From a virus, in IMG/VR virus record IMGVR_UViG_3300037478_000520, positions 32,001-96,000 of that record: a stretch of DNA of 64,000 bases; one strand, 5' to 3'. The first letter of the stretch is position 1; every line of letters starts with the position of its first letter. The notes under the pieces are model-generated. The model made no database searches. It was not told the DNA's origin and was given only the letters and a program-made list of their open reading frames with translations. The position numbers and the translations under genes are program-made. Positions 9,143-62,575 of the stretch are shown in pieces.

Positions 9143-9547
9143 ATGGTGTGCTGGGAACACGGCCGCCAAGGAACCGGCTACCTCAAGCACAGGCTCGCAA
9201 GCGCCATGTGGCCGATCCCGTGGGACGTGTACTTGCTGAAGTTCCCGCCAGGCTCGCACATTCCAAGGCATCGGGATCTGTCCGTGCTTGGCCGTCACTA
9301 CCGCCTGAACGTGACACTGTGGAATGCGCACCCAAAGCACCCGTTCCAGTCCACAGGCTGGCTGTGGCGGGGATTTGGGCGCCGCGTGGTACTGTTCCGG
9401 CCGGACATTCACGCGCACGCTGTGCGGCGGATTGAGATCGGGACGCGGTACGTGTTGAGCTTTGGGTGGTTGTGCCGTGATCGTGATGGCCGCCAGCCCA
9501 TGGGGTCAGGAAGTTCTGAAGTTGCAGAAGGCTCTCGGCGCCTTTGA
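9143..9547 (+). CDS. 2OG-Fe(II) oxygenase-like protein
   Basis: HxD (RHRD), LFRPD..AHAV, TRYVLSFGW. Confidence 0.75.
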   Translation: MVCWEHGRQGTGYLKHRLASAMWPIPWDVYLLKFPPGSHIPRHRDLSVLGRHYRLNVTLWNAHPKHPFQSTGWLWRGFGRRVVLFRPDIHAHAVRRIEIGTRYVLSFGWLCRDRDGRQPMGSGSSEVAEGSRRL

Positions 9548-9556
9548 AGCCGAGAT
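9521..9556 (+). CRISPR. Solo degenerate CRISPR repeat
   Basis: GTTGCAGAAGGCTCTCGGCGCCTTTGAAGCCGAGAT, close to the array consensus with both helices intact. Confidence 0.85.
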
Positions 9557-9970: not shown

Positions 9971-10017
9971 ATCAGAGATTCTTCAATGTCGTTCTGCTAG
10001 TTGGCAGGCTTGCCCGC

Positions 10018-10560
10018 CAAAGGCGCCGAGGGCCTTGTGCGACGTGCCGTGCTCGCAGTGCCAGAGCTTCCTTGCACCCTTGTCTCAGCTTCAAAGGCGC
10101 TGAGGGCCTTGTGCGACGGTCAGGGAAGTAGTGCGAGAGGTGCGCGTAGCCAAGTCTCAGCTTCAAAGGCGCTGAGGGCCTTGTGCGACGGCCGCCTCGT
10201 CCAGCACGTCCTTGTTCGGAGTTCGGTCTCAGCTTCAAAGGCGCTGAGGGCCTTGTGCGACCGCGAGGAGGCCGCCTGTCGAAGCGCCACAGATGAGGTG
10301 TCTCAGCTTCAAAGGCGCTGAGGGCCTTGTGCGACTCAACCGCCCTGCGGCGAGGGCCGCAAGTACCACCCTCATGTCTCAGCTTCAAAGGCGCTGAGGG
10401 CCTTGTGCGACTCGGCGATCACCTCGGCCATCACGTACCGTCGGTGCTCGCGTCTCAGCTTCAAAGGCGCTGAGGGCCTTGTGCGACTACCCGAGTCCGG
10501 CGCGCGCCACCGCGCTCGCCCCACGTCTCAGCTTCAAAGGCGCTGAGGGCCTTGTGCGAC
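10018..10560 (-). CRISPR. CRISPR array 1 (orphan): 7 full plus 1 truncated repeat, 7 spacers
   Basis: Minus-strand repeat GTCGCACAAGGCCCTCAGCGCCTTTGAAGCTGAGAC (36 nt); spacers 36-40 nt; leader at 10561-10752. Confidence 0.97.
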
Positions 10561-10752
10561 CGCTTCGTCAGATTGTCAAAGATCCCAAGCGCTTGCAAGC
10601 CGGTTTGCGAGAGCCTGTCGCTACGCGCTACAGGACGTCTACCACGGAAGCTGCTTTGGGCTGACGACCATCGGATTTCGCTAATATCCCCGCATTCTTA
10701 GCCAGTTTGCGAGCGGTCCCCGGGGTTGGCGCGCCGCCGGACCTCTCGCGAA
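10561..10752 (-). promoter_or_regulatory. CRISPR leader 1
   Basis: Near-identical reverse complement of 24472-24663. Confidence 0.85.
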
Positions 10753-10806
10753 TTTTAGCGTAGTTAATCTGCATTGGTCCAGCGCCCGATTCGTCAGAGT
10801 TACTCG

Positions 10807-24471: not shown

Positions 24472-24663
24472 TTCGCGAGAGGTCCGGTGGCGCGAAAACC
24501 CCGGGGACCGCTCGCAAACTGGCTAAGAATGCGGGGATATTAGCGAAATCCGATGGTCGTCAGCCCAAAGCAGCTTCCGTGGTAAACGTCCTGTAGCGCG
24601 TAGCGACAGGCACTCGCAAACCGACTTGCAAGCGCGTGGGATCTTTGACAATCTAGCGGACCT
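24472..24663 (+). promoter_or_regulatory. CRISPR leader 2
   Basis: Shared with leaders 1 and 3; ends GGGATCTTTGACAATCT. Confidence 0.85.
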
Positions 24664-25287
24664 GTCGCACAAGGCCCTCGGCGCCTTTGAAGCCGAGACT
24701 CCTGTGCTCCGGGCGGGGCGACCATTGCGAGGCAGTGTCGCACAAGGCCCTCGGCGCCTTTGAAGCCGAGACTTGTGCTCGAGGGCGCGCAAGGCATCGG
24801 AAAGTCTACCGCGGTCGCACAAGGCCCTCGGCGCCTTTGAAGCCGAGACGTGGGGGCGAGCGCGGTGGCGCGCGCCGGACTCGGGTAGTCGCACAAGGCC
24901 CTCGGCGCCTTTGAAGCCGAGACCGGCTGCAGGACGTGCTGGATTGGCTTGCGAGCCGGGGGGTCGCACAAGGCCCTCGGCGCCTTTGAAGCCGAGACGT
25001 GATCAGCCGCGTAGACCGCCAGCAGCGTCCACGCGGTCGCACAAGGCCCTCGGCGCCTTTGAAGCCGAGACTCTTGTTCTTGCATCTCTCCAAGAATCGC
25101 CCTATGGGGGTCGCACAAGGCCCTCGGCGCCTTTGAAGCCGAGACCCCAATCCCAGGTCGGAGACGGAACTCGCGCAGTCGTCGCACAAGGCCCTCGGCG
25201 CCTTTGAAGCCGAGACCGTAGGTCTGTGAGCACGTGGTGCAAGCCGATGGAGTATCACAAGGCCCTCGGCGCCTTTGAAGCCGAGAA
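24664..25287 (+). CRISPR. CRISPR array 2 (orphan): 9 repeats, 8 spacers
   Basis: Repeat GTCGCACAAGGCCCTCGGCGCCTTTGAAGCCGAGAC; degenerate last repeat. Confidence 0.98.
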
Positions 25288-45749: not shown

Positions 45750-46308
45750 CTCTCACTATTCTCAATAGGACCCGTTTTATGTGTCCTAGCTGGGACCACT
45801 TTTCAATCAGAATCCCAGTTGTTTCAATTTTTGAAATGACTGAGCGAAATTACAACCCCCAACACAAACCAAAATGGGACCCCTTTTCCCACACACCCGA
45901 TGGGACCCCTTTTTTTTAATTCCACCCCATTCTCATTTTTGTGGTTGCCCACATGTAGGGCTTAGGGTCCCTTTTGCGTTTGGTGCGTGGGGGAGAGAGG
46001 GGGGTAGCGCGGGGCCCTGAACAGGGGCACCCGTCCTTATTTGGGGGAACCTTCTTTTTTGTTTTGGTGGGGGGTCAAGTCGCTCGAGGCACGTCGCTCG
46101 AGGCAACTGTCCTGTTTATCCGGATGGTTCCGGGTCCATCGCCCCGATGGCGCCTGCGATGCTCTGATCGTGGCGTGGCATCGATGTGCGTGGCTCTGCG
46201 CCCTGCGCTCCACTCACTCACTCTAGCATGCGCGGGCGCGGGCCGTGCTTCCTTATAGGACTGCCTTGAGTTCGACCATGGGTCCGCAGAAAAAATCACG
46301 CACGCGTC

Positions 46309-46368
46309 TTTTTTGTGCACCCAGCGCTTGACACCGTGGGCCGCAGCGCGCATAGTTCTTGTGCACCC
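46309..46368 (+). promoter_or_regulatory. Early sigma70 promoter P1 with two TTGTGCACCC boxes
   Basis: TTGACA 46328-46333, N17, CATAGT. Confidence 0.8.
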
Positions 46369-46738: not shown

Positions 46739-46800
46739 GAGGAAGACGATCGTAGTCGCTTGGACCGAACGAGCGCCGCGAGAAAAGCGCACGACCTTGA

Positions 46801-46857
46801 TTTTTTGTGCACCCAGCGCTTGACACAAGAGATGCCAGGCGCCATAGTTTCTTGTGT
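46801..46857 (+). promoter_or_regulatory. Early promoter P2
   Basis: TTTTTTGTGCACCC, TTGACA 46820-46825, N17, CATAGT. Confidence 0.8.
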
Positions 46858-48207: not shown

Positions 48208-48735
48208 ATGACATCTTACACTGTAATCATAACGTGGGCGCTCGCCGCTAGCGCTGGGACCGGACAGACAACCGTCTGCTTTGAGGCCGCATCGCCCGAC
48301 CCTGCCAAGGCGGCCGTGGAAGCGTGGCGGACCCCCGTCACGCACAGCGGTTCCGCTGTAATCGAGTGGATGCCCGAAACCGCTGTAATCGCGTCCGTGC
48401 GGGCCGTGGCTGACGGGTGCGGCAAACATGCCCGCCCGTCCATCGCCAAGCCGCCCGAGGCGACAATCCTCGAGATTCCCGCTGCGACCTATCCCGCCAC
48501 CGTCCACTACCGCACGCCCGACGGATCGACGGCCCGATGCGACGCGACAATCCTGTGCTCCGGGCGGGGCGACCATTGCGAGGCCGTGATAGACCCTGGC
48601 GCCTGCACATCGCACTGGGGACTTGAGCAATGTCTCGCCAGCACCGTGGCCGTACCCGGCGACGATTCCGCCGATACCCTGGGGTGCGACCCGGGCGCCC
48701 GGCTGCTCGATATCGACTGGACGGACCCGCTGTAA
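48208..48735 (+). CDS. Hypothetical Cys-containing protein; carries the protospacer of array 2 spacer 1
   Basis: AAGGG SD; 48551-48587 matches spacer 24700-24736 at 36/37. Confidence 0.65.
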   Translation: MTSYTVIITWALAASAGTGQTTVCFEAASPDPAKAAVEAWRTPVTHSGSAVIEWMPETAVIASVRAVADGCGKHARPSIAKPPEATILEIPAATYPATVHYRTPDGSTARCDATILCSGRGDHCEAVIDPGACTSHWGLEQCLASTVAVPGDDSADTLGCDPGARLLDIDWTDPL

Positions 48736-48910
48736 CGTAAGCCCCTTACCGAGTGCAGTCCCGCGATCGTCGTCGAGCTGGTGTAGCGCCCGGGTGCTGC
48801 GTTCGCGCCGACCGGCGATTCGTGCCTAGCAAAAAAAAAGATCAAAAATCTAATCGGGGGCCACCTAGCCCCCGAATGCGGCCGCACCGGGATGCGCGCA
48901 CCCTGGTCGC

Positions 48911-49096: not shown

Positions 49097-50407
49097 CACG
49101 CCTGATCGCCTTGGGGCTGATCACCACCGGCTTACCGGCGCGCCGACCGTAAACCTCTCGGCCCGCCTTGAGGTGCGCTTGGACCGCCGCCGATGCGGCC
49201 TTCCTAGCGCGGCGCATCACAGCCTCCCCCTTGGTCTCGGAAATCTTGCCACGCATTGTCCATTCCACTCGCCATTTCCATCCACCGTGGAAACGTACCG
49301 CGAATCCCTCTGCGATCCCTAGGCGATCTTCCGACACCCTGTAGTCTTCGGTTGTCCCACCCCTCTGGGCGCATTTCCCCTGCCCCGACAGATGGTGAGT
49401 CCTCAGGCTACGAGGCTCAGCAGTCTTGTGGAGGCCGAGGCGGCTCCCACCCCCCTTCCCCATCCCCTTATTACCAGTCTAAACCGCCATCCACCTTACC
49501 GAGCCAATCGCCGCCCCGCATTCCAAGTTACCGTGTGATAACGTGGTGTTGGCTGAGTCTGCAGCGGTTGTTTTGCTGTAATCGCCGCTAGGTATTGGAG
49601 TGGGTTGGTGAGGTTGTTGTGTGGTGTGACGCTGGCTGTATCGCGGGGTGTTTGGCGGCTTCGGTATGGCTGTGGACTGCTCGGTAATTGGTGGACTACC
49701 AGCTGGTATTGGGAGTGTTTTTGTTCTGTTTTGACTCATTCCGGCACGTGCTGACGGATCATTCAGCCAAGACAGATACTGTCTTAAATTGCTTCGGTAT
49801 ACAGCCTTGTTTCCGGGCCTTTCACCGTGTAACAACGTCGCAAATAAGTAATCGCTAGAAATACATTGTGGGCTTGAGTTGTACAGTGGGGAAGTGAGGG
49901 GTTCGCTTGGTGTTTGAACTCGGGAAGTGTGTTCGAGGTGTCCGAGTTGATTGCTGCGGGCGGCTCGCCCAAGCACCAAGCTACCTCTCGCGACCCTCTC
50001 GACCCGCTGGCGGAGCCCCCTGTCGGCGCGCCGTCTCGCGATTCTCCCCGGGCGTGACCGCTTCCCAAATCGGGCTGTAATTTGCGATCCACGCACGGCC
50101 TAGCGCGACCTGCGCAAGCGTCGCGATCCGAACCCGGCCGTTGTGGTGCCAACGCATGTGCGCCTTGCGCCACAGCTCCCCGTCTGGAGCTACGCGGGCG
50201 GCAACGTCCCGACACCATTCCAGCTCGATCCACCGGCTGACTATCAGCGCTACCCGCTCCCCCTGTCGGCCCCTGCAACACGCCGCCCACGTCAGGGCCG
50301 CTAGGTAGCTCTGCCGGCGATCATCCAACTTAGGCGCGCGCACGGGCTAATCCTAGCGGATTTCTCGAACACTTTCACTGGGCGCAAAAAAAGTCCATGG
50401 CTGTCTA

Positions 50408-59377: not shown

Positions 59378-59486
59378 AGCGCCGATCAGAGAAGGGGAGA
59401 TCGCCACAGTCACCAAACGACTGCGCGTCACACCCGAGCAAGCCGAGGAGCTGGAGCGGGCTCCAGCGCAAAAGAAGGAAACTTGA
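59370..59486 (+). CDS. 38-aa RHH-like ORF (not in the ORF track)
   Basis: AAGAAGGA SD, TTG start, KRLRVTPEQAEELER. Confidence 0.45.
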   Translation: MTRAPIREGEIATVTKRLRVTPEQAEELERAPAQKKET

Positions 59487-59488
59487 AA

Positions 59489-61588
59489 ATGCAAACCATC
59501 GCCTACAAATACCGGATCCTTCGCGTGCTCTCCGACGAGCGGGCTATCATGGACGAGATCCGAGCCGGTCACCGGCTCTACAACGATCTAGTCGCCATCG
59601 AGCGCAAGCGACGGGCCGCGACCGAGGCGTTCTGGGCTGAGCGTGGTGGGTACCAGGATCTTCTGGCCGAGCGTGGGAAGGCCATCGAATTCGCCGAGTC
59701 GATTCCCAAGGGCGATGATCGGCGCGAGGAGAAGCGCGCGGCATGGCGCGCTGTGAACGATCTGCGTAAGCAGATCTGGGAGTGCGAGAAGGACGCCATC
59801 AAAGCGTTCCACGCGAGCGATCCCGTGAAGATCCGCAGGATGGAACGCGCCAAGGAACTCCGTGCTGCTGCGAAGGCGCGCAAGGAAAAGCTAACGGCGA
59901 AAAAGATCGCGGACATTCTTGACGAGGAACCAGATTGCCTGACCGAGCGGGATAAGCTGCGCAAAACGCTTATCCAGAGCTACAAGGATCGCGGCGTCGG
60001 GATCAGTGCGAAAACCGTGGCTGGCAAGCTCGCAGAGGCATTCCCTGGTCCGACGGAACACGTCGAGCAGGAGGCGAAAGCCGCGGCGTACACAGCCTAT
60101 CGCGAACGCGGTGTTACGCCCGGTACGCGCGCGGTGGTTGCGGACGCGCATGAGCGCTCGCTTGAGATGCTCGAGTGGCGAGAGCAACGCTTCAAGCCGT
60201 GGTCCGGCCACGGCGCATTCGGAACGCAAATCCAAGGAGGCGCGACGTACGGCGACCTATGCAGTGGCAGCCACACGTTTGCTCAACTGGAGTGCCTCGA
60301 CCGCGGCAACTACACTCCTGGATCTCGCCGGCATGGCAGTCTGCACAGGCTACGCGTGCGCCTTGGGTCGGACGGTCAGAAGCCCGTCTGGGCGGAATTC
60401 GAAGCGAGCCTACTTCGCAGCGGCCCGCGTACGTCCGCGTCGACATCGGATCCGATCCCACCCGATGCGCGCGTAATGCAAGTGCGCGTGGTGGTCGACC
60501 GAATCGGCGTGCACGACCACTGGTACGTCTGTTTCACGGCTCAGGTTCCGGACGCCGTGCACTTGCGGGATGAGCCGCCGACGAAGGGCGGGACGGTGGC
60601 CATCGACATTGGGTGGCGCAGTTTGGACGGTGGTTTGCGGGTCGGATACTTCCACGACGGGCAAGAGCACGGCCCCATCGACCTGCCAACGATCCGCAAG
60701 CGACTCAAGCCGCACGGGAAGCGAGGCGCCAAGGCGAAGTGGTTCGAAGTGCGCGACGTGTTCGATCACGCGAGTCACATCCAAGGGATCCTGTCTCAGG
60801 AATTCTACTCCGAGGACAAGGATGCGGCCGTGTACGGCGGCGCCTTGCATGACCTAGCGGTCTGGATCGACTCGCGCGGGCGCGATGCTCTCCCCGAGTG
60901 GCTCTCCGAATCTACCGCCGGGATCCGACAGTGGCGTTCGCAAGCTCGGCTCAACGGACTAGTTGAACGATGGCTTCACAACCGTTTCGAGGGCGACGGT
61001 CAAATCGTCGCTCGCATGGATCAGTGGCGCAAAGACTATAGGCATTTGCATGAATGGTGCGCGCGGGAGAGAAACCGCGCCCTGAACGCGCGCGACGAGC
61101 ACTACAGGCAGACCGCGCTACGCCTCGCGCGCGCGTACGAAACGATCGTGATCAACGGCGCCGACCTTGCAACCACGCGCCGCCGCAAACGGAAAGAGAA
61201 GGCCGCCCCCGAGCTGGTCATGGTCGAGGATGCGAAGCGTTCGCAGGCCTTCGACGCCGCGCCGGGGAAGCTCCGGGAAGAGATCGTAAAGGCGGCAAAG
61301 AAGTACGGCCGGACACTGGTCAAATTGCCGTTCGAAACCGAGAGGTGTCACGTTTGCGGGGAGGTGTGTGAATTTGACCGTGCCCGCTATCTCTCACACA
61401 AGTGCGAGCACGAGCCATGCACAGCACAGTGGGACCAGGACGCCAACGCGTGCCTGAATGCCCTTCGCGAGTGGTCCGGTGGCGCGAAAACCCCGGGGAC
61501 CGCTCGCAAACGCGACAAGCCCGCGAAGTCACGTGAGAAAACGACGGGGCGCGGCGACGCAATAGGCGCTGTGAGCGATTCGCTGTAG
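59489..61588 (+). CDS. cas12m: Type V CRISPR effector, Cas12m (V-M/V-U1)-like, probably nuclease-deficient
   Basis: RLGSDG..PVW, TVAIDIGWRS (RuvC-I), QWRSQ.R, R.RAL..RDE.YRQ.A, IVINGADL (RuvC-II E>N), AAPG.LR, CxxC..C...C Zn finger, WDQD.NA (RuvC-III); adjacent 36-nt-repeat array. Confidence 0.88.
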   Translation: MQTIAYKYRILRVLSDERAIMDEIRAGHRLYNDLVAIERKRRAATEAFWAERGGYQDLLAERGKAIEFAESIPKGDDRREEKRAAWRAVNDLRKQIWECEKDAIKAFHASDPVKIRRMERAKELRAAAKARKEKLTAKKIADILDEEPDCLTERDKLRKTLIQSYKDRGVGISAKTVAGKLAEAFPGPTEHVEQEAKAAAYTAYRERGVTPGTRAVVADAHERSLEMLEWREQRFKPWSGHGAFGTQIQGGATYGDLCSGSHTFAQLECLDRGNYTPGSRRHGSLHRLRVRLGSDGQKPVWAEFEASLLRSGPRTSASTSDPIPPDARVMQVRVVVDRIGVHDHWYVCFTAQVPDAVHLRDEPPTKGGTVAIDIGWRSLDGGLRVGYFHDGQEHGPIDLPTIRKRLKPHGKRGAKAKWFEVRDVFDHASHIQGILSQEFYSEDKDAAVYGGALHDLAVWIDSRGRDALPEWLSESTAGIRQWRSQARLNGLVERWLHNRFEGDGQIVARMDQWRKDYRHLHEWCARERNRALNARDEHYRQTALRLARAYETIVINGADLATTRRRKRKEKAAPELVMVEDAKRSQAFDAAPGKLREEIVKAAKKYGRTLVKLPFETERCHVCGEVCEFDRARYLSHKCEHEPCTAQWDQDANACLNALREWSGGAKTPGTARKRDKPAKSREKTTGRGDAIGAVSDSL

Positions 61589-61656
61589 ACCTGGGATCAG
61601 GAGCGCTCGCAAAACGGTTTGCAAGCGCGTGGGATCTTTGACAATCTAGCCGAGCT
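61464..61656 (+). promoter_or_regulatory. CRISPR leader 3, overlapping the cas12 3' end
   Basis: First 48 nt are 47/48 identical to 24472-24519; proximal TTGCAAGCGCGTGGGATCTTTGACAATCTAGC is shared. Confidence 0.85.
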
Positions 61657-62575
61657 GTATCAGAAGGCCCTCGGCGCCTTTGAAGCCGAGACCAGATGGC
61701 GTTGTGCATCTGGTTGTCGAGCCGCCGGGTATCAGAAGGCCCTCGGCGCCTTTGAAGCCGAGACCGCGACTGGCTTCATTCGGTTACTTTTTTCGATACT
61801 CGTATCAGAAGGCCCTCGGCGCCTTTGAAGCCGAGACACGCCCATGTCCGAGCCGCAGCGAAGCGCGTCGCCTCGTATCAGAAGGCCCTCGGCGCCTTTG
61901 AAGCCGAGACAGGGGGACCGCTCACCCGCAAGAGCGCTTTCAGCCGGCGGTATCACAAGGCCCTCGGCGCCTTTGAAGCCGAGACCCGCACGTCCGGATC
62001 GGCGAGCACCGGCGGTACGTGAGTATCAGAAGGCCCTCGGCGCCTTTGAAGCCGAGACTCTTGTTCTTGCATCTCTCCAAGAATCGCCCTATGGGGGTCG
62101 CACAAGGCCCTCGGCGCCTTTGAAGCCGAGACGCGCGCTGGAATGGTGGCGCTGCGCATCGGCGCGATCGTCGCACAAGGCCCTCGGCGCCTTTGAAGCC
62201 GAGACTAACACCCGGGCGCTGTTACCAAACACCCCAAGGCAGGGGTCGCACAAGGCCCTCGGCGCCTTTGAAGCCGAGACCGCGCGGCGCCGAAGCCGAA
62301 GGCGAAGCCACTCGCGCGCGTGTCGCACAAGGCCCTCGGCGCCTTTGAAGCCGAGACACGGGAGTCATCTTCGTGACCGGAACGAATACCCAGTCGCACA
62401 AGGCCCTCGGCGCCTTTGAAGCCGAGACTGTTTGGCGACGGCGCGAACTCCAAGTCGACCATCCTCGGTATCAGAAGGCCCTCGGCGCCTTTGAAGCCGA
62501 GACACTGATCACGACCTACGCGAGGTGGTCGCCGACGTGGTATCACAAGGCCCTCGGCGCCTTTGAAGCTGAGAT
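61657..62575 (+). CRISPR. CRISPR array 3 (cas-adjacent): 13 repeats, 12 spacers
   Basis: Core AAGGCCCTCGGCGCCTTTGAAGCCGAGAC with 5' variants GTATCAG, GTATCAC and GTCGCAC. Confidence 0.98.

Follow-up and report, generated by a model that had tools for sequence, protein, structure and literature searches.

A spacer nearly identical to its carrier's own gene in a phage-borne Cas12m-type CRISPR system, tentatively traced to close kin

Type V-M systems of CRISPR (clustered regularly interspaced short palindromic repeats), represented by MmCas12m2 (8hhl/8hio), GoCas12m (8pm4), the PDB entry 23vw and PmCas12m (PMC10442227, PMC11013384, 10.64898/2026.03.26.714355), are built around a compact TnpB-like effector. 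All Cas12m proteins tested so far, those with a D-E-D triad included, bind their targets and block transcription or replication with no cleavage (PMC11013384, PMC10442227), and carriage of V-M by a phage or prophage has already been noted (PMC11656645). Viruses are also known to carry arrays against their own kind. In the mini-arrays of the portoglobovirus SPV1/SPV2 (Medvedeva et al. 2019, PMC6858448; review PMC11656645), the spacers come from close kin viruses in the same population and are directed against them, the corresponding locus of the carrier being mutated (PMC6858448). Huge phages encode type V effectors as well, and their CRISPR systems have been proposed to act against rival phages (Al-Shayeb et al. 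2020, PMC7162821). Here we analysed a stretch of 64,000 nucleotides of viral DNA (the window), which spans positions 32,001-96,000 of the 113,660-bp IMG/VR record IMGVR_UViG_3300037478_000520, estimated to be 82% complete. Three CRISPR arrays in the window serve a Cas12m-like effector, and the leader-proximal spacer of array 2, hereafter A2.1, matches a gene of the phage itself at all positions but one. We tentatively read A2.1 as a kin-derived spacer of a V-M system whose own genomic copy is spared by its flank, and give this reading a probability of about 0.47.

Like the described V-M systems, the locus combines a compact TnpB-like effector, bearing RuvC and a zinc-finger TNB domain and a non-canonical RuvC triad, with 36-nt repeats whose 3' stem ends 2 nt before the spacer and which hold a candidate pseudoknot; adaptation genes are missing, and silencing through binding that depends on a protospacer-adjacent motif (PAM), without cutting, would be expected. 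It differs in the length of the effector (699 aa versus ~580-615 aa), in the triad (D-N-D here; D-E-D, H-D-D and N-D-D in the described forms), in being carried by a 114-kb phage and served by three dispersed arrays, and in that its single self-site has a CAA flank. Arrays with leaders are shared with SPV1/SPV2, whereas this phage brings its own effector, predicted to be non-cutting, and has long arrays with 27 spacers, only one of which is kin- or self-derived. Unlike that of SPV1/SPV2, moreover, the carrier's own protospacer is unmutated in the functional guide region, so that any protection must come from the flank. With the huge phages it has in common a phage-encoded type V effector and arrays without adaptation genes; CasPhi and the other effectors there are nucleases, whereas the present 114-kb phage carries an effector of the putatively binding-only Cas12m kind.

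Spacer A2.1 (TCCTGTGCTCCGGGCGGGGCGACCATTGCGAGGCAGT) is flanked on both sides by perfect 36-nt repeats, and no match to it arose in any of 100 dinucleotide-preserving shuffles of the window. The first-pass annotation had described a 36/37 match to the phage's own gene, with a single PAM-distal and synonymous mismatch and with GACAA instead of TTN on the 5' side, and each of these readings was reproduced. The mismatch lies at spacer position 35, where the spacer has A and the genome (48585) has C. Position 48585 closes an Ala codon (GCC, 48583-48585) when read in the open reading frame (ORF) 48208-48735, and the change between GCA and GCC is therefore synonymous. The first 34 nt of the spacer are identical to the phage's own site, and the CRISPR RNA (crRNA) is predicted to pair with the template strand of the target gene. 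No canonical PAM stands on either side of the protospacer, the opposite flank being ATC. A likeness (4/6) between CGACAA on the 5' side of the protospacer and CGAGAC, with which the repeat ends, was judged to be chance. Among the 27 spacers, A2.1 is the sole one to match the phage when the full record is scanned; an ungapped scan of the other 26 for diverged homologues in the phage gave best identities of 0.57-0.70 against a shuffle maximum of 0.66, none of them convincing.

Table 1. Coordinates of the features discussed; positions without a prefix are those of the window
Feature	Position	Strand	Description
Spacer A2.1	24700-24736	+	37 nt, leader-proximal in array 2, self-matching guide
Protospacer	48551-48587	+	36/37 identical to spacer A2.1, same sense as gene
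5' flank of protospacer	48546-48550	+	GACAA; PAM position for a type V effector
Target gene	48208-48735	+	175 aa; no family match
Cas12m-like effector	59489-61588	+	699 aa from ATG (701 from TTG at 59483)
CRISPR array 1	10008-10560	-	8 repeats, 7 spacers
CRISPR array 2	24664-25287	+	nine 36-nt repeats (GTCGCACAAGGCCCTCGGCGCCTTTGAAGCCGAGAC), 8 spacers of 35-41 nt
CRISPR array 3	61657-62575	+	13 repeats, 12 spacers; directly downstream of effector gene
Leader of array 2	24472-24663	+	conserved blocks common to leaders of arrays 1 and 3
Sigma-70-like promoter, two copies	46328-46356, 46820-46848	+	TTGACA-17-CATAGT; ahead of small-gene cluster
L008 (IMGVR_UViG_3300048892_000198)			~111-kb phage; effector E value 1.6e-37 to Cas12m
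L008 near-self spacer	L008:11407-11444, matching L008:9723-9760		38 nt; own cas12m, antisense, codons 37-49; 36/38
L013 (IMGVR_UViG_3300023218_000251)			Cas12m relative; effector E value 2.2e-47
L013 near-self spacer	L013:12255-12289, matching L050:1501-1535		35 nt; 714-aa ORF, sense; 34/35

By sequence and predicted fold, the effector is a relative of Cas12m, in agreement with its first-pass assignment. In phmmer searches it matched the Cas12m of PDB entry 23vw_A with an E value of 2.4e-36 and GoCas12m (8pm4_A) with 7.3e-13, and the PADLOC Cas12u1 model covered residues 122-665 with 5.6e-58. For the AlphaFold2 model (mean predicted local distance difference test score, pLDDT, of 78), the top four Foldseek hits were all Cas12m (8hhl, 8pm4, 8hio and 8hhm; E values of 7e-25 to 3e-20), with the next Cas12 families following at 1e-9; the global template modelling (TM) scores against Cas12m structures are 0.40-0.47, values to be expected when a multi-lobe protein is modelled with no nucleic acid bound. 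The alignment places the RuvC residues at D375, N558 and D651-Q-D653, and the zinc-finger cysteines at C622, C625, C641 and C646. The RuvC-II position 558 is occupied by Asn in this effector and in five of the closest relatives; two further relatives have Ser or Arg, and only the most distant one keeps Glu. Cutting is unlikely because the RuvC glutamate is thus replaced by Asn, and the effector was treated as binding-only since even the D-E-D members of the family bind without cutting; that it binds DNA without cutting, as had been proposed at first pass, is therefore very probable on residue identity and family precedent.

The guide heteroduplex of Cas12m comprises 17-18 bp (PMC10442227, PMC11013384), and mismatches are felt only in about the first 11-12 nt (PMC10442227; PMC11013384; 10.64898/2026.10.26.761838; 10.64898/2026.03.26.714355). 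The mismatch at position 35 is outside this functional guide, and the phage's own site is therefore a perfect target which only the flank can distinguish.

The gene matched by A2.1 most likely starts at the ATG at 48208, behind a putative AAGGGA ribosome-binding site, and the protospacer covers codons 115-127, in its last third. Its product had no match in Pfam, PHROGs, NCBIfam, PADLOC or the protein atlas. Among 5.8 billion proteins, it formed a single 90% cluster of eight alleles that come from JGI, ENA and Logan assemblies and are 92-100% identical, and a product identical to it is present on six contigs. Judged from these comparisons, the gene is an ORFan confined to this phage lineage, and owing to this restriction A2.1 should derive from this phage or from close kin. 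Such relatives, on which the idea of kin exclusion in the first-pass annotation depended, do exist: besides the eight alleles, the metagenome contig L016 of a kin phage (L016:1-4116, Ga0326597_10076742) encodes an effector protein 100% identical to that of this phage, although its flanks share only 83-87% nucleotide identity. Of the six spacers in array 3 of L016, three are shared with this phage and three differ. It would seem that the CRISPR cassette is better conserved than the DNA around it, or else moves more readily. A search of IMG/VR with the effector and the target protein gave no close kin, near-identical records being possibly masked there, and no close relatives of the phage were found among GenBank phages.

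We then considered the flank of the protospacer. Positions -4 to -1 read ACAA, that is the Thr codon ACA and the first base of the Ile codon ATC, and this Thr-Ile pair is invariant in 8/8 target alleles. The flank is therefore ACNA in every allele, with the Thr wobble base (A here) at -2, and a TTN PAM is impossible in any known allele. The PAMs known for Cas12m are TTN, YTN, YTTS, TTV or C-rich (PMC11013384; 10.64898/2026.03.26.714355). With its purine at -2, the CAA at the phage's own site looks unlike any of them. A single synonymous change would turn this flank into CTA or CCA; CTA would suit YTN, as in PmCas12m, and CCA a C-rich PAM, as in some orthologues (10.64898/2026.03.26.714355; PMC11013384). 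Thr is encoded in this phage by ACA (11%), ACC (35%), ACG (43%) and ACT (11%), so that ACC and ACT together make up 46%.

The only clue to the PAM of this very effector is indirect. Spacers A3.5 (61986-62022) and A1.2 (10412-10451) overlap by 21 nt with one difference, which puts TCG ahead of the A1.2 protospacer, with pyrimidines at -3 and -2. These spacers would stem from separate captures of two alleles of a single foreign gene; combined they read PHVRIGEHRRYVMAEVIA, resembling an excisionase or HTH_17 motif. Searches for protospacers of all three arrays by blastn against GenBank phages and PLSDB plasmids returned nothing usable. Likewise, neither exact seeds of three spacers nor the protospacer itself matched in IMG/VR, the repeat pattern matched in neither IMG/VR nor GTDB genomes, and a wobble-degenerate pattern for the excisionase-like target found no match in GTDB genomes. 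Comparing the relatives' spacers with this genome, and the spacers of this phage with the fetched loci, revealed shared spacers only.

On these grounds we propose a putative course of events. A2.1 would have been taken from the gene pool of the lineage, the likeliest donor being a co-infecting close relative with an allele that had GCA for the Ala and, at the Thr wobble position, a pyrimidine (flank CCA or CTA). The resulting crRNA might let Cas12m bind and silence such relatives, or block their replication, amounting to superinfection exclusion between kin. The carrier's own copy would probably escape engagement owing to its CAA flank; binding there, should it occur, would leave the DNA uncut and touch no more than the 3' third of a single accessory gene. 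Such a kin origin also fits the imperfect match, the diversity of the kin and the precedent of virus-borne arrays (PMC6858448).

Several points weigh against this proposal. It presumes that the effector does not accept CAA. The kin alleles are known as protein, and the allele joining GCA to a valid flank is hypothetical. Were T required at -3, where both TTN and the TCG suggested above have it, no Thr allele could carry a PAM. For the other 26 spacers, the phage offers neither a match nor a convincing diverged homologue, which leaves kin targeting a minor role in the arrays at most. An accessory-looking ORFan at what is probably the end of a transcription unit is not obviously an effective site for interference. 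Finally, position 35 is neutral in both spacer and gene, so that one mismatch fits an old self-derived spacer equally well.

Near-self spacers are not peculiar to this phage. The survey took in nine loci with arrays, this phage included, using whole IMG/VR records where obtainable, and such spacers occur in 3/9 of these phage Cas12m loci. The spacer of L008 differs from the phage's own cas12m at position 6 (Leu/Phe) and position 28 (synonymous), next to a canonical TTC flank; it could be a guide against the cas12m of a rival or an attenuated autoregulator. That of L013 differs at position 6 (Pro/Ser) and has a GGG flank. The L013 spacer is the eighth in its array and leader-distal, and the array of L008 runs off the end of the contig. 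No near-self spacers were found in L009/L012, L010, L011, L002, L005 or L018; an apparent self-hit in L002 proved to be a solitary repeat and not a spacer target. A solitary repeat is also present in the L013 phage (L051:1503-1538).

Compared with their spacers, the own copies of L008 and L013 differ by allele-like changes exactly where Cas12m is intolerant, namely at seed position 6. The three targets, an ORFan, the phage's own cas12m and a 714-aa ORF without functional assignment, share no regulatory logic. We consider it improbable that this phage, by means of an effector accepting a CAA-type flank, represses its own ORFan upon expression of the CRISPR module; near-self spacers would in that case be a recurrent and selected device of self-control or kin recognition and not accidents. 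The lineage-only target gene and the seed differences in L008 and L013 favour kin exclusion over self-regulation, the two readings offered in the first-pass annotation; the former accounts for the data better, with the allele bearing a valid flank as its conjectural part.

The main rival, absent from that annotation, is an accidental pickup: A2.1 would come from the phage's own DNA or that of an immediate ancestor, through host adaptation in trans or array recombination, and would be tolerated without any adaptive role, dampening at worst one non-essential gene. We regard this as possible but doubtful. No Pfam match to cas1, cas2 or cas4 was found in the record, which places uptake outside the control of the phage. 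In an infected cell, no substrate for uptake is as plentiful as phage DNA. The neutrality of position 35 suits this account too, as does the want of a canonical PAM on both sides of the own site, which is what uptake without PAM selection would leave, and an effector predicted not to cut (PMC11013384) would make such a guide harmless. A recent self-capture should, however, match at 37/37 positions; the differences in L008 and L013 change amino acids, lie in the seed and look allelic rather than like drift; and PAM-selective uptake, the rule in most systems, would hardly have started from a CAA flank.

Adaptive self-regulation would require the site to lie where a bound effector matters. The target gene closes a series of small, overlapping plus-strand genes that is preceded by two copies of a strong predicted promoter and diverges from the structural module, and the protospacer is ~1.7 kb downstream of the nearer promoter. 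A predicted minus-strand terminator (48854-48875) is consistent with a convergent minus-strand unit ending there. From this ORF layout and the promoter and terminator scans, the gene was taken to be the last of its transcription unit, and the label 'early' given to it at first pass would likewise follow from its place in a promoter-led plus-strand cluster. Cas12m could in principle act at this site as a programmable roadblock repressor of 48208-48735, for example once crRNA and effector accumulate. The first 34 nt match perfectly, the leader-proximal spacer is presumably the best expressed, and the crRNA would pair with the template strand with the PAM side facing the oncoming polymerase. In dCas12a, by analogy, a template-strand, PAM-first orientation of this sort is effective as a roadblock. 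A binding-only effector also tolerates self-targets (PMC10442227, PMC11013384).

Against this, an effector bound in the 3' third of the last gene could only truncate that one transcript, the CAA flank fits no known Cas12m PAM, the spacer set of array 3 differs in L016, and the arrays are fluid; elsewhere, near-self spacers hit unrelated genes with seed mismatches that should abolish binding. With a target neither at a promoter nor in a 5' region, self-regulation fits poorly; it is the least supported reading, and we hold it to be unlikely. The type IV-A system of Pseudomonas oleovorans (Guo et al. 2022, cited in PMC11656645), as far as that review describes it, employs self-targeting interference for regulation and resembles the present one in its non-cutting effector and natural spacer against the carrier's DNA. 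The parallel bears on self-regulation alone, and nothing at the self-site here points to a regulatory position, to conservation or to an accepted PAM.

The three arrays belong to one repeat family. Array 3 begins 69 nt past the effector stop codon, in the orientation of the gene, and combines two repeat variants (GTATCAG... and GTCGCAC...) in mosaic fashion. A spacer-plus-repeat block is common to array 2 (25040-25145) and array 3 with 99% identity, and the spacer GTGGGGGCGAGC... occurs in arrays 1 and 2 at differing ranks and stands first in array 3 of L016. On the evidence of these repeats and spacers, units are exchanged between arrays by recombination. The shared block and the mosaic array 3 also bear on the first-pass description of A2.1 as the newest spacer: its leader-proximal rank holds, but it need not be the latest captured because arrays 2 and 3 recombine.

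This exchange opens a variant of the kin-derived reading, in which A2.1 was captured by another member of the lineage and imported with a recombining array-2 cassette or leader-proximal unit, so that the self-match would be accidental. An effector that is fully conserved between phages with such diverged flanks argues for it, as do the block common to arrays 2 and 3, the mosaic repeats and the one spacer found at different ranks in three arrays. The transfer of a cassette is itself conjectural, and the present consequences would be the same as for a guide captured directly from kin. We think this route improbable.

The leaders of the three arrays are near-identical (24472-24663, 61464-61656 and 10561-10790). 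Two blocks are common to all of them, including CTCGCAAAC (twice) and GGGATCTTTGACAATCTAG, and parts of these blocks are kept in the leader of the distant phage L008 (L008:11160-11226). The first leader block of array 3 falls within the 3' end of the cas12m gene, so that arrays 1 and 2 look as though gene end, leader and array had been copied as one piece.

The crRNAs of arrays 2 and 3 read 5'-repeat-spacer-3' on the plus strand, with the PAM side at the 5' flank. This assignment rests on the position of the leaders, degenerate terminal repeats (in array 2 the last repeat, 25252-25287, at the end away from the leader), the order of gene then array in every relative, and the 3' stem of the repeat; these features, with the covariation of the stem, ruled out the reversed orientation. 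The stem, CUCGGC/GCCGAG, stops 2 nt before the spacer and shows a compensatory change in the repeat variant of array 1 (CTCAGC/GCTGAG). Across 13 related loci, compensatory changes occur in 6/6 pairs of the stem and 91% of cells are paired; the candidate pseudoknot helix is 66% paired, in an alignment of imperfect register. The strand bias of the spacers, called by codon-usage likelihood, was uninformative (18 sense and 12 antisense), the method being 75% accurate on 37-nt pieces and miscalling a known sense spacer. A solitary diverged repeat with four mismatches (9521-9556, plus strand) lies inside the 3' end of ORF 9143-9547, on the strand opposite to array 1 and ~450 nt away from where that array ends; it has no leader, and the 37 nt following it have no match elsewhere in the genome.

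The carrier is an uncultured 114-kb phage whose minus strand encodes terminase, portal, protease, capsid, sheath and tape-measure proteins; it looks lytic and of myovirus type. The terminase did not lead to the host, its relatives being <30% identical and spread over many host groups. An intergenic cassette composed of a T-run and the sigma-70-like promoter (TTTTTTGTGCACCCAGCGCTTGACAC...CATAGT) is repeated at 46290-46356 and 46783-46848 and also at 50389, 53002, 54267 and 55861; it precedes the plus-strand gene clusters, and two of its copies are identical.

In summary, kin-directed viral spacers (PMC6858448) and phage-borne V-M systems (PMC11656645) were already known; new here are the D-N-D triad, a testable discrimination of self from kin at one wobble base (PAM position -2) and the occurrence of near-self spacers in three of nine loci. 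Among CRISPR effector families, Cas12m alone silences its targets instead of cutting them, which allows a virus that carries it to keep guides against sequences hardly different from its own. This phage, L008 and L013 all hold such guides, each with a defined difference in flank or seed that would decide between binding to kin and to self. If A2.1 was indeed derived from kin, CRISPR-based superinfection exclusion would extend from the cas-less mini-arrays of archaeal viruses to bacteriophages with a non-cutting effector of their own, and these loci would offer a natural read-out of the PAM and seed rules that separate self from kin. Should the own site be bound instead, the locus would be a natural example of a phage using CRISPR interference on itself.

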